From NCBI GenBank assembly GCA_027482685.1, contig JAIXVU010000001.1, positions 11 to 64,010 on the forward strand: a stretch of DNA of 64,000 nt. Direction: 5' to 3'. Below the pieces are notes generated by a model. It saw only the letters and a program-made list of their open reading frames with translations. It ran no database searches and had not been told where the DNA came from. Within the stretch, counting starts at the first letter, position 1; each line of letters starts with the position of its first letter. Source of the DNA: a bacterium (GTDB lineage Bacteria > Patescibacteriota > Minisyncoccia > Phycocordibacterales > UBA5272). The position numbers and the translations under genes were made by a program. Positions 2,251 through 40,428 of this stretch are shown one piece after another.

Positions 2251-2270
2251 TAGGGGTTAGAGATTAGGAA
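2251..2270 (-). repeat. CCCTAA-type leader motif copy in inverted orientation (ttaggggttagagattagg)
   Basis: Reverse complement cctaatctctaacccctaa matches the motif upstream of frr (9664-9693). This copy sits between the convergent ppiB and fmt genes. Confidence 0.5.
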
Positions 2271-2330
2271 TCAGGTGCAGATACTAGAAAGCGATGCCGT
2301 AGGCATCGCTTTCTAGTATCTGCACCTGAT
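2271..2330. terminator. Perfect 28-bp inverted repeat with GTAG loop between convergent ppiB and fmt
   Basis: tcaggtgcagatactagaaagcgatgcc GTAG ggcatcgctttctagtatctgcacctga. The two arms are exact reverse complements. Likely a bidirectional terminator, although the stem is unusually long. Confidence 0.65.
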
Positions 2331-7463: not shown

Positions 7464-7590
7464 ATAGTACTAGTGTATAGGTTTTAGGGGATAGGGGCTA
7501 GTAGGTAACAAAAAACCTTGCGTGTCATGAGGCTGAGGGGAAAAGGGAACAAGGGGATTGATTATACTAAAAGTGTCAAGTGTTGCGTAT

Positions 7591-7620
7591 CTCTCTAAAC
7601 CTCTAGCCACTATACCCTAG
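7591..7620 (+). repeat. CCCTAA/CCTCTAGCC leader motif upstream of mreB
   Basis: ctaaacctctagccactataccctag lies 30 nt 5' of the mreB ATG. Member of the recurring motif family. Confidence 0.5.
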
Positions 7621-9622: not shown

Positions 9623-9663
9623 TGTACAATTTGTCTACTAATAAGGTATTAAATTTTGTATTT

Positions 9664-9693
9664 CCTAACCCCTAATCTCTATACCCTAACTAT
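9664..9693 (+). repeat. CCCTAA leader motif (cctaacccctaatctctataccctaactat) abutting the frr start codon
   Basis: Ends 1 nt before the frr ATG. No SD sequence is present. Confidence 0.55.
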
Positions 9694-18769: not shown

Positions 18770-18800
18770 GAACACGCGCGACCGAAGGTCGCGCGTGTTC
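18770..18800 (+). terminator. Terminator gaacacgcgcgacc-GAAG-gtcgcgcgtgttc
   Basis: Perfect 14-bp stem after greA. Related to the hairpin at 20843. Confidence 0.7.
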
Positions 18801-18923
18801 TGTATTTAACTAATTACAAATTACTAATAACTAATTACTTGTGCTTCCATATCGACTAAACTTCTCCAATTTGTTACTATACTGTATATCAACACGCATC
18901 TCAACTATTAACATTAACTATCC

Positions 18924-20842: not shown

Positions 20843-20874
20843 TAAGCGCGACCGAAGGTCGCGCTTGTTTTTGT
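20843..20874 (+). terminator. Terminator aagcgcgacc-GAAG-gtcgcgctt plus T-run
   Basis: GC hairpin followed by tgtttttg. Confidence 0.7.
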
Positions 20875-20883
20875 ATCAACCAT

Positions 20884-20910
20884 TCCCTAATCCCTAACCT
20901 CTAGACCCTA
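20884..20910 (+). repeat. CCCTAA leader motif (ccctaatccctaacctctagaccctag)
   Basis: Lies between the terminator and the mraZ promoter. Confidence 0.5.
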
Positions 20911-20957
20911 GTTCTGGATATCCACACTTTTTTCTAGGTATTTAGGTAGAAAGTGGA

Positions 20958-20987
20958 GTATAATGGGTGCTAGTGGGGGGAAGTGGG
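20958..20987 (+). promoter_or_regulatory. mraZ promoter -10 (TATAAT) followed by three MraZ boxes TGGGT-N5-TGGGG-N5-TGGGA
   Basis: gagTATAATggg. TGGGT (20963-67), gctag, TGGGG (20973-77), ggaag, TGGGA (20983-87). This is the canonical MraZ operator architecture upstream of mraZ. Confidence 0.75.
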
Positions 20988-21135
20988 AGCTTCCAAAAAA
21001 GTTTTTAATTTTGCGAATTGCATAGAGGTTCCTCACTTTATCATCGTGGTGTACTTACCAGAGGCGTCACAAATAGAGGTGTCCTATGCATTTCGTTATA
21101 ATTAAAAACTTTTACCACACAATTTTTTAACAAAC

Positions 21136-28238: not shown

Positions 28239-28243
28239 TTAGC

Positions 28244-28270
28244 GCTAACCCCTAACCTCTAGCCCCTAAC
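28244..28270 (+). repeat. CCCTAA leader motif (ctaacccctaacctctagcccctaaca) abutting the start codon
   Basis: Ends 2 nt before the ATG at 28273. Confidence 0.55.
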
Positions 28271-31419: not shown

Positions 31420-31454
31420 AGCCCCTAGTCCCTAAACCCTAACCTCTAGCCCTT
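31420..31454 (+). repeat. CCCTAA leader motif (gcccctagtccctaaaccctaacctctagccctt) abutting ychF start
   Basis: Ends at the nucleotide before the ychF ATG. Confidence 0.55.
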
Positions 31455-32714: not shown

Positions 32715-32769
32715 CACCTCATCTACTTTGTCGCTACGAAATTTTCCTCAGTCATCGTAGGCCTACTAT
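32715..32769 (+). repeat. 3'-UTR repeat element copy B (partial direct duplicate of copy A)
   Basis: cacctcatctactttgtcgctacgaaattttcctcagtcatcgtaggcctacta is 52/53 identical to the 5' half of copy A, 160 nt downstream. Confidence 0.6.
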
Positions 32770-32853
32770 CAATGATATATACAGATATGGTATTATGTGG
32801 TATAGTGTGAAGCGAAACAGTTCTGTTTTACCCACTACCATGGAGGTTATGCA

Positions 32854-33159
32854 ATGGAAAATTCAACCGAAGAGTCCAATGTCCATGCAGGAAACGTTGA
32901 CAAGACACCTGCATTTCTCGCATATGAGTTTGCCGTCAAGCTCGTACAAGAACATGGGTTCCCAACGACTGACCCGCTCGTTGCTTACCTCTACGCAGAT
33001 GAGATGATGACGAGCTTGGTAGCGTTCAAGGACCTCTGTGTGGTCTTGGAATTTGCGGAGGGTCTTCCTAAAACAATTCCAGACCTGTTTCATATCAAGC
33101 ATCTTGAGAAGATGAAGCAGGCACTCGAAGATAAACAATCCAATAAAAAATCCTCATGA
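32854..33159 (+). CDS. Hypothetical protein (101 aa), GC-rich with strong SD
   Basis: GGAGGT lies 6 nt before the ATG. About 47% GC. Private terminator. Lies just after the duplicated repeat element. Confidence 0.5.
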   Translation: MENSTEESNVHAGNVDKTPAFLAYEFAVKLVQEHGFPTTDPLVAYLYADEMMTSLVAFKDLCVVLEFAEGLPKTIPDLFHIKHLEKMKQALEDKQSNKKSS

Positions 33160-33169
33160 GGGTTGTTGG

Positions 33170-33197
33170 GCCACGCGGTACTCCGCGCGGCTTTTTC
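33170..33197 (+). terminator. Terminator gccacgcgg-tact-ccgcgcggc plus T-run
   Basis: GC hairpin followed by ttttt. Confidence 0.7.
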
Positions 33198-33268
33198 TTA
33201 TGGGTTTTTTATTGCTTAATAAATGAAATAAAAATCTATTTGAATTGTAGTATTATGAGTAGAACAAT

Positions 33269-33841
33269 ATGACTGAAGAACAAGCAACTTTGACAGATGA
33301 AGATATTGCAATCTGCGTATGTAATGGAGATAAAGATTTGTATGGAGTTCTCATTGATAGGTATGAATCAAAATTAACACGCTATGTTAAACGATTCACA
33401 CAACATGAGGAAGATGTCCTTGATATCATACAAACTATTTTTATAAAAGCATATATACATCTACAGAGTTTTGACAGTAAGCGATCTTTTAATAGCTGGA
33501 TATATCGTATTGCGCATAATGAAAGTGTGAATTATCTGAAGAAGCGAGGGGGAGAGAAAATTTCATTTATTGATTTTGATACATTTCTTCCATATTTATT
33601 CGCGCAAGAAGAGTCTGACAAGCTAGCTCTTGATGACGAGACTAAACGTCTCATGGATGCAAGTTTACAAAAAATACCACCAAAGTATCGAGAAGTATTG
33701 GTGCTTTTCTTTTATGAAGAATTATCATATCAAGAAATTGCAGATGTGCTCCATATACCGATTTCAACCGTTGGGGTACGTATTAAACGAGGAAAAGATG
33801 CATTAGAAAAAACTTTAACAGCTAATCACTATCAATCATGA
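33269..33841 (+). CDS. ECF-type RNA polymerase sigma factor (sigma-70 region 2 and region 4)
   Basis: Region 2 (IIQTIFIKAYIHLQSFDSKRSFNSWIYRIAHNESVNYLKK) and region 4 HTH (LSYQEIADVLHIPISTVGVRIKRGKDAL). Confidence 0.85.
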   Translation: MTEEQATLTDEDIAICVCNGDKDLYGVLIDRYESKLTRYVKRFTQHEEDVLDIIQTIFIKAYIHLQSFDSKRSFNSWIYRIAHNESVNYLKKRGGEKISFIDFDTFLPYLFAQEESDKLALDDETKRLMDASLQKIPPKYREVLVLFFYEELSYQEIADVLHIPISTVGVRIKRGKDALEKTLTANHYQS

Positions 33842-34638
33842 CAATCAAAAATAATATTTTAGATACACTTCATACTAAGAACCTAAAGATGATACCTAGG
33901 TGGCAATTCATCGTGTATTCTATTTTGGTAGTACTTGGCCTGGTCTTTATTTTTTTGGTTACGGTATTTTTCTTTAGCTTGATGCTCTTTGTACTTTCGC
34001 GTTACGGGTACATGTATATGCCATTCTTTGGTTTTATGGCAACCTTGAAGGCATTATCTGCGATCCCACTTCTTCTCTTTGGAGCTACAATTATCCTTCT
34101 TGTTTTAATTGAGGTTATTTCTCGCAAATATACTATTTCTTTTAAGAGACCACTTATTGTTACTCTTTTATCAACCACTTCATTTGTGGTAATAGTTAGT
34201 TTTATCATCAGCGAGACATCAATGCATGACTATATTCATACATATGCCAAGTCTCGTCGTATTGATATCATGTCACGTGCATATGACAGGCCAATACCGT
34301 TTAAGCTAAAGGATGATATGACAGTAGTTCGAGGGGAGGTAGTTGCAACGACAAGCACAAGTACTTCTATCAGGCTTTTTGATGGAGTTATCCTTACCGC
34401 GTATGCGAGTACTTCACTCATGGATAGATTCATTCAGCCGGAAATCGGAAAAGATATCATACTCTTGGGGACATTCCTAGGTGATCGTATTGAAATACTT
34501 GATATTCGTGCGGCACCTCGCGCGACATTTGGTAGACATATGGGTGGCGGGAAGCATATGCACGATGGAGTCAGGGGTAGTATGTCAAATGATATCGGTA
34601 TGCCGATAATTCGAGTTCAAACTGGGGTAGATAAATAG
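33838..34638 (+). CDS. Membrane protein, putative anti-sigma factor
   Basis: Translationally coupled to the sigma factor (ATGA overlap). Multi-TM N-terminal half plus a C-terminal soluble domain. Confidence 0.5.
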   Translation: MTIKNNILDTLHTKNLKMIPRWQFIVYSILVVLGLVFIFLVTVFFFSLMLFVLSRYGYMYMPFFGFMATLKALSAIPLLLFGATIILLVLIEVISRKYTISFKRPLIVTLLSTTSFVVIVSFIISETSMHDYIHTYAKSRRIDIMSRAYDRPIPFKLKDDMTVVRGEVVATTSTSTSIRLFDGVILTAYASTSLMDRFIQPEIGKDIILLGTFLGDRIEILDIRAAPRATFGRHMGGGKHMHDGVRGSMSNDIGMPIIRVQTGVDK

Positions 34639-34836
34639 AATTATTTTAATGTTTTGCCAGCTTGAAAATGATAATTGACTATTTTTAAGCCGGTTAACTA
34701 GATTTAATCTAGAGGTGAAATAAAATATCTACACATCATGTAGTACATAGTGAGAGGGGGAAGGTATATCCTATGAACTAATTTTTCCTCTCCAGTCATA
34801 CATTTGACTATTACTACAAATAACTATCGTATAATC

Positions 34837-35295
34837 ATGAAATCTACAATAAAAAAAGCATCACTCTTAGGAGCGCTAGGTATGGCAGTAGCAGGCGTTG
34901 CAACTGCTTCTGCTATGGGGTTCGGTGGTTTTGGTGGCGGAATGATGAGCACTCTTACAACGGATGAAATTGCGACACGTCAGACAACTATGTTTCAAAA
35001 ACAAGCAGAGCTTATCGGCGCAACTACTGATGAAATCAAGAACGCTTGGGCTGATGGAACAGACTTTCTTACTTTTGCTAAATCAAAAGGGGTAACCGAG
35101 GAAGCTCTCAAGGTCAAATTGCAAGCTGTTCGTGTTGCAGAGTTAAAGACACAGCTAGATATGCTCGTTAGTAAAGGTGTCATCACCCAAGCACAGGCAG
35201 ACAAGCGATTAGCCACCATGCAAACCAAAATGACAAATAAGAAATCATTTGGTATGGGTCGTGGTCATCACGGGATGATGGGCGGATTATTTTAG
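34837..35295 (+). CDS. Secreted Gly/Met/His-rich protein (putative periplasmic metal-binding)
   Basis: Signal peptide MKSTIKKASLLGALGMAVAGVATASA. GFGGFGGGMM and GMGRGHHGMMGGLF Met/His clusters resemble Cu-binding motifs. The ORF track starts 11 codons earlier. Confidence 0.5.
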   Translation: MKSTIKKASLLGALGMAVAGVATASAMGFGGFGGGMMSTLTTDEIATRQTTMFQKQAELIGATTDEIKNAWADGTDFLTFAKSKGVTEEALKVKLQAVRVAELKTQLDMLVSKGVITQAQADKRLATMQTKMTNKKSFGMGRGHHGMMGGLF

Positions 35296-35370
35296 TGCAC
35301 ATCTCTTGCGAATGTAAGGGATGTATAAAAACAATAGTTGTTCTTTAATAAAAGTATAATTATATATTGC

Positions 35371-35404
35371 AAAACAGGCGCCCTAAATGGAGGCGCCTGT
35401 TTTG
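35371..35404 (+). terminator. Terminator aaaacaggcgcc-ctaaatgg-aggcgcctgtttt
   Basis: 12-bp stem plus T-run after the secreted-protein gene. Confidence 0.7.
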
Positions 35405-35552
35405 TTTTTTAGAGAAGTGAAACATCCTTATAGCTTGCCCTGAGTTTGTAAAAGGAAGGTGGGGGATAGTTTGCCGAGTAGACAAAGCACGGTATCAATT
35501 TTTGCAAATTAATTTTTAAACATGTAGAGTATCCCATAGATCCACGTAGGTC

Positions 35553-35885
35553 GTGGAAGGAGAAATGGTGATGAGCGATATCAATCGAGAGTTCGATACA
35601 ACTGTTGAACTTGTGAGGGCAGCTGAGATTGAGCTAATCCAACATATTGGAGAAGTAAACGCCAGAAAACATGAGCTACTCTCCTACAAATTTCTCAAGT
35701 TCAACAGTGAGAAAGAGTATGCCTGGCAGGCGTTATTGCGTAGGTTCTCAAGAAACCCAGAGCAAAAAGGAAACGTGCAAGGTGTCGAAGAGCTCACCTT
35801 TGCACTTCGTGCGTACCTTGCGGCACTAGAAGCAGAACTAGAAAAGCCGCTAGAAGTACAGCAAAAGCAAAGTACTGCAAGCTAG
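35553..35885 (+). CDS. Hypothetical protein (110 aa), GC-rich with strong SD
   Basis: GGAAGGAGAA directly precedes the ATG. No known motif. Confidence 0.5.
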   Translation: MEGEMVMSDINREFDTTVELVRAAEIELIQHIGEVNARKHELLSYKFLKFNSEKEYAWQALLRRFSRNPEQKGNVQGVEELTFALRAYLAALEAELEKPLEVQQKQSTAS

Positions 35886-35931
35886 GGTGTATCTGATGTT
35901 GCTACTTCATCTTCAGATTTTTGAAAGGGTC

Positions 35932-35960
35932 AAGCGCGCCGTAGGCGCGCTTTCTTTTTA
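35932..35960 (+). terminator. Terminator aagcgcgcc-GTAG-gcgcgctt plus T-run
   Basis: GTAG-loop hairpin family member. Confidence 0.7.
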
Positions 35961-36073
35961 TACATACTGCAACGCTAGAATCTCATCACCATCTTTGCTA
36001 TAATCAAACTACTAATTTTGTATTTAGAATTGTATCTGTATCAACTAGACCTAACCTTTACCTACCTAGTACT

Positions 36074-37966
36074 ATGTCACTCACCGTAAATCAAATTCGC
36101 ACCAAATTCCTAAAATATATGGAAAGTAAAGGCCATGTTGTTGTTCCATCAGCGTCTCTTGTTCCTGAGAACGACGCAACAACACTTTTCACTGGTTCTG
36201 GTATGCAACCGATGGTGCCGTATCTCCTGGGACAGCCACATCCGCTTGGTGTTCGTATCACAGACTCACAAAAGTCATTCCGTTCACAAGATATCGAGGA
36301 GGTGGGAGACAATCGCCACACAACATTTTTTGAGATGTTAGGCAACTGGTCATTCGGTGATTATTTTAAAGAAGAACAAATTAGGTGGATGTGGGAGTTC
36401 CTCATTGATGAGCTTAAACTTGATCCTAATAACTTTTATATCACGTGTTTTGCAGGTAATGAGTCACTTGGCGTCAAGCGAGATACGTTCTCTGCAGAAT
36501 TATGGCAGAAGCTTTTTGCGCAGAAGGGTATTGATGCAAAAGTGAGCGATACACCAGAGAGTGGAATGAAAGATGGCGAGAAGATTTTCTACTACAATGA
36601 AAAGAAAAACTGGTGGTCACGTAGTGGAGTACCTGCTAACATGCCAGAGGGAGAACCTGGCGGACCAGATAGTGAGATGTTCTATGATTTTGATGCAACT
36701 GGTCAACAAAAGATTCACGAAACGAGTGCATGGAAGGATGTGCCGTGCCATGTGAACTGTGACTGTGGGAGATTCCTTGAGATAGGGAATAATGTATTCA
36801 TGCAATACAAGAAAGTTGCTGGAGGGTTTGAAGAACTACCACAGATGAATGTGGATCATGGGTCGGGGCTTGAGCGTTACGCAGCGGCACTACGTAATGA
36901 TCCAGATGTTTTCAATATCGACGTGTTTGATGAACCGAAGAAGATGATTGAGCGTTTGAGCGGAAAAGTATATGGTGAGTCAACAGAGGTAACCTACGCA
37001 TATCGTGTTGTGCTCGACCACATTCGTGCGGCAGTATTTCTTATTGGTGATGGAGTGTTGCCAGGGAACAAGGATCAGATGTACTTTGTACGTAGACTTC
37101 TTCGTCGCGCGGTACGATTTGCTCGTAACTTGGGCGTGCATGATAATTTTACTCGAGAAGTTGGAGCTTCTTTTATTCAAACATATAAGGTAGAGTACAC
37201 GCTGCTTGAAGAAAAGAGACAGGTGATTTTAGATGAACTCGAAAAAGAAGAGATGAAGTTCCGCAAGACTCTTGAGAATGGAATAAAAGAGTTCGAGAAA
37301 ATAGCAGATAAGAATATTAGTGGAGTAGATGCATTTAACCTCCTTCAGTCATTTGGGTTCCCAATCGAGCTTACAGAAGAGTTAGCAAAAGAACGTAATA
37401 TTACAGTTGATAGAGTATCCTTTGATGAAGAAAAGAAAAAACATAGTGAAGAATCTCGTACAGCAAGCGCTGGGAAGTTCAAAGGAGGACTAGGAGGGGA
37501 CGGTGAGATGGAGGTTAAGTATCATACCGCAACGCATTTGCTTCATGAGGTACTTCGCCAAGTGCTCGGTGATCATGTACTGCAGAAGGGAAGTAACATT
37601 ACATCAGAGCGATTACGATTCGACTTCTCTCACGGCGAGAAGATGACTGATGAGCAGAAGAAGCAAGTAGAAGATATTGTGAACAAAGTCATTGCAGATG
37701 ATTTACCTGTTCACCGCGAAGAAGTGAGTTATGATGAAGCTCGTGCACGAGGGGCAATAGGAGTGTTTGATGCAAAGTATGGCGATACGGTATCTATCTA
37801 TACCGTAGGTCGTGAGACTGGTACACGTGGTGGAGCGAATCTCTTCTCACTTGAATTCTGTGGTGGTCCGCATGTAGAGCACACAGGAGTACTCGGAACC
37901 TTCAAGATTACAAAAGAGGAGGCGGTATCAGCCGGTGTTCGCCGGATCAAAGCAATTTTATCCTAA
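36074..37966 (+). CDS. alaS: Alanyl-tRNA synthetase, C-terminally short form (630 aa)
   Basis: AlaRS catalytic N-terminus (FTGSGMQPMVPYLLG, WSFGDYFK). Editing-domain metal site HTATHLL...H and CGGPHVEHTG. Lacks the C-terminal C-Ala/DHHA1 region. Confidence 0.88.
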   Translation: MSLTVNQIRTKFLKYMESKGHVVVPSASLVPENDATTLFTGSGMQPMVPYLLGQPHPLGVRITDSQKSFRSQDIEEVGDNRHTTFFEMLGNWSFGDYFKEEQIRWMWEFLIDELKLDPNNFYITCFAGNESLGVKRDTFSAELWQKLFAQKGIDAKVSDTPESGMKDGEKIFYYNEKKNWWSRSGVPANMPEGEPGGPDSEMFYDFDATGQQKIHETSAWKDVPCHVNCDCGRFLEIGNNVFMQYKKVAGGFEELPQMNVDHGSGLERYAAALRNDPDVFNIDVFDEPKKMIERLSGKVYGESTEVTYAYRVVLDHIRAAVFLIGDGVLPGNKDQMYFVRRLLRRAVRFARNLGVHDNFTREVGASFIQTYKVEYTLLEEKRQVILDELEKEEMKFRKTLENGIKEFEKIADKNISGVDAFNLLQSFGFPIELTEELAKERNITVDRVSFDEEKKKHSEESRTASAGKFKGGLGGDGEMEVKYHTATHLLHEVLRQVLGDHVLQKGSNITSERLRFDFSHGEKMTDEQKKQVEDIVNKVIADDLPVHREEVSYDEARARGAIGVFDAKYGDTVSIYTVGRETGTRGGANLFSLEFCGGPHVEHTGVLGTFKITKEEAVSAGVRRIKAILS

Positions 37967-37971
37967 AATTA

Positions 37972-38072
37972 CTTCATCTACTTTGTCGTTACAAAACTTT
38001 TTCAGTTCAATGTAGGTTTACTACATCTCATTAAAAAAGTTTCTAGACTCCTCGTATCTAAGGCAATTTTAA
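37972..38072 (+). repeat. 3'-UTR repeat element copy C (after alaS)
   Basis: catctactttgtcgttacaaaactttttcagttcaatgtaggtttactacatctc...tatctaaggcaatttt. Hairpin tgtag-gttta-ctaca carries compensatory changes relative to copy A. Confidence 0.6.
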
Positions 38073-38098
38073 GACAAAATAATTCTTGAATAAAAAGA

Positions 38099-38127
38099 AA
38101 AACCGCCGAGAAACTCGGCGGCGGTTT
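38099..38127. terminator. Hairpin aaaccgccgag-aaa-ctcggcggcggttt
   Basis: GC stem with flanking A/T runs, 3' of the minus-strand gene 38224..38523. Confidence 0.5.
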
Positions 38128-38223
38128 GAGCAATAAGTGCTCATGATAGTTGAGGTGTCGTGACGACATCGTAGATACGAAGTAAAACGTACAAGAAAAT
38201 CGTCAAAGGAAACAGAAGGACCA

Positions 38224-38523
38224 TCAGAAGTATCTCTTTTTCACCCGCTCCCAGTCAATGAGTCCGAGCTTGTACTTCAGCCGGTACTCGATCACGATGA
38301 GGTGATAAAAGATGAAAAAGTCGACTAGGATGATGAAGCTGATGGCTTTCCAGTTCGATTCATCAAGATGCTTCCATATTGTCACTGCACAAAGGAACGC
38401 AAGTCCGAGTTTTGCAAACTGCACAAGCTCGAGCTTCTTTGTATCAGAAATCTTTTTCATGGGATCTCTCTGGTTGGTTAAGAACAACTTTTTCATAATA
38501 CATCTAATATAAAGAATAGTCAA
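38224..38523 (-). CDS. Hypothetical small membrane protein (2 TM)
   Basis: Two hydrophobic helices. Several alternative ATG starts (MKKLFL / MKKISD). Confidence 0.4.
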   Translation of the reverse strand: MTILYIRCIMKKLFLTNQRDPMKKISDTKKLELVQFAKLGLAFLCAVTIWKHLDESNWKAISFIILVDFFIFYHLIVIEYRLKYKLGLIDWERVKKRYF

Positions 38524-38555
38524 TAGTACTGCATTTTGTGATACTGTTAAAACTA

Positions 38556-38617
38556 TTAACTAGAAACAATTGGCTATCTTTATTAACTATTAACTATTAA
38601 CTATTAACTATTAACTG
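38556..38617. repeat. Heptanucleotide tandem repeat (TTAACTA) x5 plus a nearby sixth copy in a divergent promoter region
   Basis: ttaacta ttaacta ttaacta ttaacta ttaactg at 38583-38617, with another ttaacta at 38556-62. The tract ends 14 nt before the ATG of 38631..39014. Confidence 0.8.
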
Positions 38618-38630
38618 TATACTTATTCTC

Positions 38631-39014
38631 ATGAATCCATTCCTTAGTATCGCAGTTGGAGATATCGCAACACTCATTAACTATGTTGTTGATGATCATG
38701 TTATTGTGTCACACACGCATCCTATCGGGTACAAACACATAGAAGCAGATGGTATGAATCAGATAGCAGCGTCTAAATTTATTGATGGTGTACTCTACAC
38801 GCTTGAGTTCGTATCACTTCACGATAGAATACCTACACACTTTAGACTTGTATCACCGCGATATGCGATGTGGGTAGGGGAAGCTCTTGAGCAGGCATCT
38901 TATACACAGTTCTTTACTGATGGAGCACCTATAAGTGTTACACTAGAAGATACAGAAGCCGTTCCTCTTTTCTATGCAAGACATTCGCAAGCCATACACT
39001 CGTTCAAGATCTAA
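38631..39014 (+). CDS. Hypothetical protein (127 aa)
   Basis: ORF directly downstream of the heptad repeat tract. Overlaps the next ORF by 41 nt in another frame. Confidence 0.4.
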   Translation: MNPFLSIAVGDIATLINYVVDDHVIVSHTHPIGYKHIEADGMNQIAASKFIDGVLYTLEFVSLHDRIPTHFRLVSPRYAMWVGEALEQASYTQFFTDGAPISVTLEDTEAVPLFYARHSQAIHSFKI

Positions 39015-40428
39015 CCGTAATCTCTACGACAGGGTGGAGCAGTTTGAGTCGCGTCGCTATAGAGATGAAGATGAGAGACTTATTGATGATAGATACGATG
39101 ATGAGCCAGTTCGTATAGCACCGAAAGATGCACCGCGTGTTCGTCGCAATGTGGACCAGATGGAGATGTACCCGCTCAAACGTCGCTCAAGTGATGATGA
39201 GTATGAAAGAGAAGATGATAGGGATCAAGAAGAATCTCGTAGTAGTTTCTTCAATAAACGCCGTATACCAATAGATCGCGATCCTCGAACAAGGTACGCT
39301 AAGACACACTCTCTTAGAACATGGCTATTTATTCTCGGTCTTATTGTTATATGTGTGGTTGTATATATGTTCACGTATGTTTTTAATAAAGCGACAATTA
39401 CAGTTGTTCCTAAGTTTCAGGATGTTGAAGTAAAGAAGTCTGTAAACCTTTCACTTGCACCGACTGATAATCAAGTCAAGATTATTGTTGCGTCTACATC
39501 ACTTACTGCATCTAAACAGCTAGAGAAAACTGAAACCAAGAAAGTGGAAGCAAAAGCAAGTGGTAAAATTATTATTTATAACAACAACGATAGTGAGCCG
39601 CAAAGACTGATAAAAAATACTCGCTTTGAGTCTGCTTCTGGTAAAACATATCGTATTAGTGAGTCGGTAACTATTCCAGGAAAGTCAGGCGATAAGCCAG
39701 GAAGCTTAGAAGTAACTGTGTATGCTGATAGTTATGGAGCAGACTATAATACGAATCCGACAGACTTTACCATACCAGGATTTAAGGGGACACCGAGGTA
39801 TACAGCATTCTTTGGCAGGTCAAATGGCCCAATAACAGGAGGATCATCTGGTGAAGTGACATCCCCATCGATGGCAGATATAAATGCTGCAAAAGATTCT
39901 TTAGCTATGGAACTTGCTCCTAAAATTAAACAAAAGCTTCTTCAGGTAAAAGAAAAAGGATATACACCACTTTACTCAGCAGTTGAAGTAGTTTACAAAG
40001 ATAACGAAAAAGATATTCTCCAAGGTAACGCAACAACATATGAAGTTGTTGCAACCGGGTATCTTATGTTGGCTGACACCCAAGAACTTACAAAATCATT
40101 TGCAGATAGTATTCGTGATTATAACAATGAGCCATTTCGCCTAGGTAACGAAGAAAATCTAACGTACACCAAAAAAGAAGGAGATAGTGTCCTTACATCT
40201 CCATCAGTACAGGTCCTTGCTGAGGGAAGTCCTCGTATAATCTGGTCAACAGATGAAAATGAAATAAAGAAATTGTTTGCAGGTAAGAGTAAAAGTGAAT
40301 TCAAAACGCTCATGAACACCATCCCTTCAGTACAGCAAGGCGAGATATCCTTCTATCCATTATGGGTATCGACATTTCCAAAAGATGTAGAAAAGATTTC
40401 TGTTGTAGAAAAGCTACCTAAACGTTGA
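38974..40428 (+). CDS. Hypothetical bitopic membrane protein (484 aa)
   Basis: Charged Arg/Asp/Glu-rich cytoplasmic N-terminus (RRYRDEDERLIDDRYDDEP), one TM (LFILGLIVICVVVYMF) and a large extracytoplasmic domain. Confidence 0.55.
   Translation: MQDIRKPYTRSRSNRNLYDRVEQFESRRYRDEDERLIDDRYDDEPVRIAPKDAPRVRRNVDQMEMYPLKRRSSDDEYEREDDRDQEESRSSFFNKRRIPIDRDPRTRYAKTHSLRTWLFILGLIVICVVVYMFTYVFNKATITVVPKFQDVEVKKSVNLSLAPTDNQVKIIVASTSLTASKQLEKTETKKVEAKASGKIIIYNNNDSEPQRLIKNTRFESASGKTYRISESVTIPGKSGDKPGSLEVTVYADSYGADYNTNPTDFTIPGFKGTPRYTAFFGRSNGPITGGSSGEVTSPSMADINAAKDSLAMELAPKIKQKLLQVKEKGYTPLYSAVEVVYKDNEKDILQGNATTYEVVATGYLMLADTQELTKSFADSIRDYNNEPFRLGNEENLTYTKKEGDSVLTSPSVQVLAEGSPRIIWSTDENEIKKLFAGKSKSEFKTLMNTIPSVQQGEISFYPLWVSTFPKDVEKISVVEKLPKR

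Follow-up and report, generated by a model that had tools for sequence, protein, structure and literature searches.

A heptad repeat tract in front of a conserved Paceibacterota operon and its possible role as an upstream promoter element

Direct repeats of the heptamer TAACTGA are known from marine Beggiatoaceae and from some Cyanobacteria and Bacteroidetes (MacGregor 2015, PMC4679880). They occur in sets of two to six units, placed mostly toward start codons which lack a Shine-Dalgarno sequence and ending about 1 nt before them; S1, Csp or CsrA have been put forward, albeit as proposals only, as the proteins that read them (PMC4679880). These repeats appear to be the closest published analogue of the tract described here, a run of TTAACTA units in a 64-kb stretch of DNA (the window, by which we mean the whole of the sequence analysed). 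In both cases tandem heptamers occupy intergenic DNA, number two to six per set, are unstructured and stand near a start codon without a Shine-Dalgarno sequence, and in both there are many sets per genome, the window holding eight period-7 CTA arrays in its 64 kb. The two differ in that the unit here is TTAACTA (in rotation TAACTAT), which shares 5 of 7 positions with TAACTGA, and in that its sequence varies between arrays and lineages, only CTA and the 7-bp phase being kept. Furthermore, the focal array is phased on a -10 box before the ATG and, throughout a phylum-level clade, is kept at the same orthologous promoter. This phasing and this conservation at a single promoter argue for a function in promoter DNA rather than for the translational role proposed for TAACTGA.

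Simple repeats in promoters and 5' regions also underlie phase variation in host-adapted bacteria, those of Haemophilus influenzae among them (reviewed in PMC2651432); the poly-G repeats of Moraxella uspA1 and the AGAT repeats of uspA2 are further examples, as cited in PMC4679880. The tract resembles such elements in being a perfect short repeat of non-helical period upstream of a membrane-protein gene, with signs of unit change, and differs from them in its five units, its buffered spacing, its ancient conserved module and the core operon which it precedes. In the hmw promoters of H. influenzae the repeats are themselves heptanucleotides. The promoters of leaderless genes offer another comparison: they carry a -10 box some 6-8 nt before the start codon (GeneMarkS-2 class C; Actinobacteria, Deinococcus). 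The focal promoter has this layout, which is common in the window, with TATACT ending 7 nt before the ATG and no Shine-Dalgarno sequence; it is set apart by a phased heptad array upstream of the -10 box in place of a -35 hexamer or a TGn. The cyanobacterial heptanucleotide STRR repeats form a last comparison class. In most genomes long simple repeats are built more often of heptanucleotide units than of any other (Mrazek 2007, as cited in PMC4679880), and the tract shares with these and with STRR repeats the favoured heptanucleotide class, an intergenic position and an origin ascribed to polymerase slippage. Unlike the tract, however, those repeats are long and scattered and keep to no conserved place in a promoter.

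Almost nothing is known of how transcription and translation start in CPR bacteria (Patescibacteria), and in the literature searched for leaderless genes and Shine-Dalgarno usage in CPR there was nothing on such arrays or on leaderless promoters there. The present locus offers a concrete cis-element for comparison between genomes, namely four 7-bp units phased with a putative leaderless -10 box.

The tract, its putative promoter and its operon

The features discussed are listed in Table 1. By its proteins the window comes from a Paceibacterota (CPR) genome: a Candidatus Paceibacterota MAG contig encodes a protein with 56% identity to the ORF484 product, and those homologues of ORF127 which bear a name are assigned to Parcubacteria, Paceibacterota or Gracilibacteria. 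Gene order around the tract is alaS (36074-37966), a small minus-strand membrane-protein gene, the tract, ORF127, ORF484, infA, rpsM, rpsK, rpsD and rpoA, with 13 nt between the tract and the ATG of ORF127.

Table 1. Positions in the window of the focal tract, its neighbours and the other heptad arrays
Feature	Position	Strand	Remarks
Small divergent membrane-protein gene	38224-38457	-	77 aa from MKKISD; homology to L031
Promoter-like site of divergent gene, TTGACT-17-TATTAT	38495-38523	-	both hexamers conserved in L031
Possible second extended -10-like box, TGtGATACT	38537-38545	+	read from the sequence
Degenerate heptad-like run AAAACTA TTAACTA GAAACAA TTGGCTA TCTTTA	38549-38582	+	includes the copy at 38556-38562
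Five-unit heptad tract, TTAACTA x4 + TTAACTG	38583-38617	+	-47 to -13, with the TSS assumed at the A of ATG 38631
Putative -10 box, TATACT	38618-38623	+	abuts the tract; ends 7 nt before the ATG
ORF127, highly conserved hypothetical protein, 127 aa	38631-39014	+	homologue search, predicted fold
ORF484, charged N-terminus, one predicted transmembrane helix, large C-terminal domain	38974-40428	+	
Array after terminator hairpin	2251-2271	-	just after the hairpin; no in-register -10-like box
Array	7471-7505	-	in register with TAnnCT box; ATG 6-8 nt past box
Array before mreB	7599-7619		in register with TAnnCT box; ATG about 31 nt downstream
Array before frr	9661-9688		in register with TAnnCT box; ATG 6-8 nt past box
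Array after terminator hairpin	20883-20910		just after the hairpin; no in-register -10-like box
Array inside operon	28241-28268		fills a 34-nt gap; no in-register -10-like box
Array in ychF leader	31421-31448		no in-register -10-like box

Read directly on the plus strand, positions 38583-38610 are four perfect copies of TTAACTA and 38611-38617 are TTAACTG, which bears out the array of five perfect or near-perfect heptamers described in the initial annotation. Tandem Repeats Finder reports it at 38581-38616 with period 7, 5.1 copies and 100% matches, and its score of 72 is the highest in the window. The periodic run is 36 nt long and yields 29 consecutive lag-7 matches, where about 5e-13 such runs are expected by chance in 64 kb; the 64-kb window holds no second lag-7 run of at least 12. 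The heptamer as such is not enriched (14 occurrences of TTAACTA in the window against 15 expected), so the lone copy at 38556-38562 is not significant by itself. That copy, which had been counted as a sixth unit, does lie 20 nt upstream of the tract; however, it stands 27 nt rather than 28 from the first tract unit and is thus one base out of phase. The degenerate run to which it belongs, which has no counterpart in the closest relative (L031), looks like a decayed array one base off the phase of the main tract.

The tract carries stop codons in all six frames and lies outside coding sequence. Folded as single-stranded DNA and as RNA it shows no structure (z-scores -0.45 and -1.35), and a hairpin, a cruciform and a riboswitch were dropped as candidates since folding predicts the tract to be unstructured. 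Rfam at its gathering thresholds gave no match at the tract, its only hit in the window being a truncated tRNA (positions 1-63); ARAGORN detected no tRNA, and the window has no 16S rRNA gene whose anti-Shine-Dalgarno sequence could be matched to the repeats.

The TATACT that follows the tract is a putative -10 box with the geometry typical of a leaderless promoter. No GGAGG-type ribosome-binding site precedes ORF127, nor is there a general GGAGG motif in the window. A TAnnnT box that ends 3-12 nt ahead of the start codon is present in 30 of its 68 genes, and in about ten of these TGn precedes the box. The infA promoter is canonical (TTGATT-17-TATACT). Judged by these motifs, the genome would use ordinary -10 boxes and many leaderless starts, and appears largely to lack Shine-Dalgarno sequences. 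A scan with the sigma-70 consensus found no plus-strand promoter over the tract and no TTGACA-type -35 element; TTAACT hexamers of the tract would stand 15 or 22 bp from the -10 box. Promoters of the ORF127 type have neither a TTGACA -35 nor the TGn extended -10 of many other promoters in the window. When the promoter elements are mapped, as the initial annotation had proposed, the tract does not lie between two fixed elements but abuts the -10 box. The second extended -10-like box further upstream has a TATACT at the matching place in L031 and L039; were it active, the tract could lie in a 5'UTR.

A -35 element of ECF type (AAC followed by N16) was considered because many orthologs have GYAAC at -33 to -29 and the window holds an ECF-type sigma gene at 33269-33841. 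It was not adopted, given that AAC is missing from the C-rich arrays described below, that the -10 box resembles TATACT and that the promoter of the sigma gene itself is free of heptads. The product of the sigma gene has Sigma70_r2 and r4_2 domains; the gene shares 4 nt with a 266-aa gene at 33838-34638, which has no family match and may encode an anti-sigma factor.

The tract had been placed between divergent genes, with the minus-strand gene starting at 38523. The orientation is divergent, but the start is most likely at 38457, where the MKKISD conserved in L031 begins. The small gene itself is real; its product is 52% identical over 75 aa to that of a 95-aa gene at the same place in L031. 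Its promoter-like site sits 60 bp away, so that the tract is not inside it. Exact-protein look-ups returned nothing for the alaS product or for three start variants of the small gene; the alaS gene call in contig L044 has a different start and gives 615 aa.

ORF127 has 169 homologues, mostly of 65-80% identity and 127-130 aa long. The AlphaFold model of its product (pLDDT 81) matches PPX, YeaZ, PilM and MreB, and these modest matches (E about 3e-4, TM 0.4-0.55) suggest an RNase-H-like or actin-like ATPase (ASKHA) half-domain. A DNA-binding protein is not obvious from this predicted fold, which gives no support to ORF127 as an autoregulator. The overlap of ORF127 and ORF484, which had seemed odd, is real: the ATG of ORF484 lies 41 nt inside ORF127 in the +1 frame (38974-39014), and an overlap of the same length recurs in the relatives examined, at 4001-4041 in L004 and 1544-1584 in L031. 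Between the window and L004 the overlap DNA has two differences in 42 nt, and such near-invariance would be consistent with dual coding and translational coupling. The ORF127-ORF484 pair is conserved across Paceibacterota beside infA, and the gene order recurs in the relatives examined. ORF127 and its partner with a single transmembrane helix loosely recall cytoplasmic/membrane pairs of the PilM-PilN or FtsA type.

Unit phase and unit number among relatives

Loci with ORF127 were gathered from two collections, one of genomes and one of metagenomes, and through exact-protein look-ups, and 29 non-identical promoters, which are not phylogenetically independent, were aligned on the best TATACT-like box near the ATG. 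This -10 box (TATACT, or TAAACT/TACACT) ends 6-7 nt before the ATG in 26 of the 29 loci. Upstream of it stand 7-bp units that end in CTA or CTG and keep strict phase with the box. Over the 29 promoters such an end occurs 21 times at -13, 13 times at -20, 16 times at -27 and 24 times at -34, followed by six times at -41 and four at -48, all other offsets from -13 to -59 scoring between zero and three. The common form runs from -40 to -13 and comprises four units, with the consensus TCCACTA GCAACTA TTAACTA TTARCTA, before TATACT. The first unit, (Y)CACTA at -38 to -34, is the best conserved, and L036, L017, L038 and L015 keep only this motif and the -10 box.

The first four bases of the unit differ by lineage, as in GTGACTA twice and then GTGGCTA (L007), CACGCTA three times (L016) or CCACCTT twice (L025). 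Units are more alike within a promoter (4.21 of 7 positions) than the same unit position is across promoters (3.40 of 7), which indicates turnover by slippage; the pattern is what would be expected of such turnover under constraint on phase and number. Six phased units are found in two lineages (L008 and L016), the range for independent lineages being five to six. In many orthologs the module begins 3-10 nt past the terminator T-run of the upstream gene, usually alaS, which leaves no room at these loci for a promoter upstream of the array. A four-unit module that is conserved in 29 orthologs, and mostly imperfect, suggests a cis-element under constraint and not a contingency repeat. The focal tract reads as this genome's expanded copy of that module, which stands before the same gene across Paceibacterota.

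Among the nearest relatives the number of units is four, against five in the window assembly. The closest (L031-35, 80% protein identity) has TTAACTA x3 + TTAACTG, identical in five contigs from five samples; a sister species (L039-43, 88.6% DNA identity) has TTAACTA CTAACTA TTAACTA TTAACTG, identical in the five contigs read of eight; and a third species (L045-54) has a heterogeneous four-unit module, identical in the ten contigs read of the 19 that carry the protein. The window's own population was followed in Logan assemblies, which we take to have been built with k=31, as the contig ends agree. L044 (SRR16126875) is 100% identical to window positions 32732-38610 and stops at 38610, whilst L001 (SRR16126876) and L002 (SRR16126878) begin at 38587, with flanks identical to the window; each of these ends at the tract is a 31-mer holding one non-periodic base. 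In a de Bruijn simulation at k=31 a five-unit allele alone assembles through the tract, and a mixture with a four-unit allele gives breaks one base off the observed positions. The observed ends are reproduced only with alleles of at least six units, alone or mixed with the five-unit allele. The tract is therefore probably slippage-prone and variable in length, and some reads may carry at least six units, although library stutter or the collapse of units in the MAG could also account for the breaks. Variation in unit number, the check proposed in the initial annotation, is seen between species and suggested by the k-mer breaks, but the number is invariant within three related species (5, 8 and 10 contigs).

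Heptads are not confined to this promoter. The pattern CTA-N4-CTA-N4-CTA has 15 hits in the window against 0.8 expected, and the eight period-7 arrays mostly have exactly four units, for the most part of the C-rich NCCCCTA type (e.g. CTAACCC CTAACCT CTAGCCC). The seven besides the focal one either precede frr, mreB, ychF, a 623-aa gene and a 75-aa gene or follow directly on terminators. Four of the eight, the focal array included, are in register with a box, and in three of these four the ATG lies 6-8 nt past it. One of the two post-terminator arrays has no gene downstream, and further arrays of the window stop 4-6 nt short of an ATG. Another species (L045) has no period-7 CTA array in its syntenic 20 kb, and its ychF and alaS genes carry TGnTAGAAT/TATAAT boxes at about 7-9 nt from the ATG, whereas the corresponding boxes of the window stand about 40-60 nt upstream of it, with a C-rich array in between. 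From this contrast it would seem that heptamer repeats of the C-rich type have spread into leaders within this lineage. Their spread into housekeeping leaders would connect this locus with the unexplained heptamers found in Beggiatoaceae and cyanobacteria.

Two terminator hairpins of the window, at 18776-18794 and 20846-20864, share the identical 19-nt core GCGCGACCGAAGGTCGCGC, and within about 20-40 nt past each stands a heptad array, of the AT-rich ACTAATT type at 18806-18839 and of the C-rich type at 20883-20910; hairpins and arrays together may form a small dispersed terminator-plus-array element. Before the lysS start codon (18924), positions 18895-18923 read CAACTA TTAACA TTAACTA TCC, a short imperfect relative of the focal repeat which ends 3 nt before the ATG and has a TATACT box about 45 nt upstream.

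Possible functions of the tract

We favour, at odds slightly better than even (a probability of about 0.55), the reading in which the promoter of the conserved leaderless operon ORF127-ORF484 has the tract as its upstream half, unstable in length but buffered. RNA polymerase or an accessory factor would read the phased ACTA motif, notably the copy at -37 to -34. In this lineage the TTAACTA unit would have overwritten all four positions, and slippage would then have added units upstream, to give the four of the sister species, the five seen here and probably at least six in part of the population. Since every unit carries ACTA, the module from -40 to -13 would stay unchanged for any unit number of at least four, and it is in this sense that a length-unstable tract is buffered; unit changes might at most tune promoter strength and would not act as an on/off switch. 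The in-register arrays at 7471-7505 (minus strand) and 9661-9688, which likewise have an ATG 6-8 nt past the TAnnCT box, support this reading. A (Y)CACTA motif 21 bp from the -10 box does not fit a standard sigma-70 -35 element, and a 7-bp phase mismatches the DNA helix, a mismatch that suggests either an uncommon reader or an array strongly shaped by slippage mutations. Taken together, the repeats of this class cannot, on the arrays of this window, simply be promoter upstream halves, as four of the eight have no in-register -10-like box downstream.

A broader version of the promoter reading is offered tentatively, and we hold it to be distinctly the less probable. The phased ACTA array would be an undescribed promoter element of Paceibacterota, turned over by slippage whilst selection keeps its phase and number; at the focal locus it would have escaped the four-unit limit to become a rheostat of heterogeneous length, and the C-rich arrays of ychF and alaS would belong to the same system. 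A sigma factor, the surface of RNA polymerase or an abundant DNA-binding protein are possible readers, each suggested with the same reserve. If this were true, the homogenised tract of variable length would be a natural expression rheostat of a conserved envelope-associated operon; and the unit-number heterogeneity, if real, would place the locus among the few candidates for the tuning of expression by repeats in a lineage of uncultivated episymbionts.

The initial annotation had seen in the tract a slipped-strand phase-variation switch. Gain or loss of units would then change transcription of ORF127-ORF484, for instance by shifting the upstream sequence or the array at 38549-38582 through two-thirds of a helical turn per unit, and would yield subpopulations differing in the level of the membrane protein. 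Repeats in promoters and 5' regions are established devices of this kind (PMC4679880, PMC2651432); the tract has four perfect units plus one; sister species carry four units against five here, with five to six in the independent lineages L008 and L016; and the k-mer breaks suggest alleles of at least six units beside or in place of the five-unit allele in three runs of the same population. What stood of the proposal is a perfect heptad repeat before a gene start in a divergent intergenic region, with a unit number that is apparently not fixed, but not the switch function. The array is homogeneous and abuts the -10 box, so by sequence logic unit changes would leave the local promoter geometry unaffected: any four or more identical units give the same -40 to -13, and the tract is not the promoter spacer it was taken for. 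The four-unit position is conserved even where the units are imperfect, the three related species are invariant in unit number, five units are few beside characterised heptanucleotide switches, and the k-mer signal could also be explained by PCR or sequencing stutter or by unit collapse in MAG assembly. Nor is the downstream pair a typical phase-variation target, being a conserved core operon beside infA-rpsM-rpsK-rpsD-rpoA rather than a variable contingency gene. A classic phase switch is thus not supported, given the conserved module, the unit number fixed in relatives and the core operon; instability in length is plausible and a modest tuning possible, and phase variation of the operon is in our estimate unlikely.

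Quite unlikely, too, is an operator array, in which a dedicated repressor or activator would bind the phased ACTA units cooperatively over the -35 region and spacer, extra units adding sites. The strict 7-bp phase of the motif, kept whilst the rest of the unit varies, is compatible with such binding, and the occurrence of similar arrays away from -10 boxes, some right after terminators, suits a general DNA-binding factor better than RNA polymerase. Against this, the fold predicted for ORF127 is not a recognisable DNA-binding one, heptads are lacking from the promoter of the neighbouring ECF-type sigma gene itself, and sites that follow one another at 7 bp face different sides of the helix, an unusual arrangement where duplex DNA is bound cooperatively.

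An element acting in RNA is rather improbable. Here the tract would be transcribed, from an upstream promoter or by read-through, and as a G-free, unstructured leader would recruit ribosomes or an RNA-binding protein such as S1 or a cold-shock protein. The predicted lack of structure in the RNA and the possible upstream box with its counterparts in L031 and L039 agree with this, as do the C-rich period-7 arrays between good TGnTAGAAT/TATAAT boxes and the ATG of ychF, alaS and rsmH, and the published heptamers that end a few nt before the start codons of genes without a Shine-Dalgarno sequence (PMC4679880). At the focal promoter, however, the -10 box stands between array and ATG in the 29 orthologs with the array phased upon it, many orthologous arrays begin right after a terminator T-run with no promoter upstream, and the heptad varies so widely between lineages that one conserved RNA-binding partner is hard to envisage.

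Very improbable, finally, are a plasmid- or phage-type iteron array, which had been mentioned as an alternative and to which direct repeats in an AT-rich intergenic region would conform, and a neutral microsatellite: the iteron in its replication sense is excluded by a chromosomal housekeeping context (alaS, infA, rpsM, rpsK, rpsD, rpoA) with neither a replication-initiator gene nor DnaA boxes at the locus and by units of 7 bp instead of 17-22 bp, whilst neutrality is contradicted by the module's conserved phase in 29 orthologous promoters and may hold for the units beyond four only.

In contig L009 a second heptad array lies at 669-705 on the minus strand (TTCACTA CAAGCTA CCACCTA CAAGCTA ATAGCTA ATAGCTG), right after a terminator hairpin in a convergent gene pair and with no gene downstream; it opens with TTCACTA, as the modules of ORF127 promoters do. 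In the window, the mraZ promoter region (20950-20995) has a TATAAT box followed by spaced GTGGA, GGTGC, GTGGG and GTGGG motifs, which resemble the direct-repeat MraZ operator of other bacteria.
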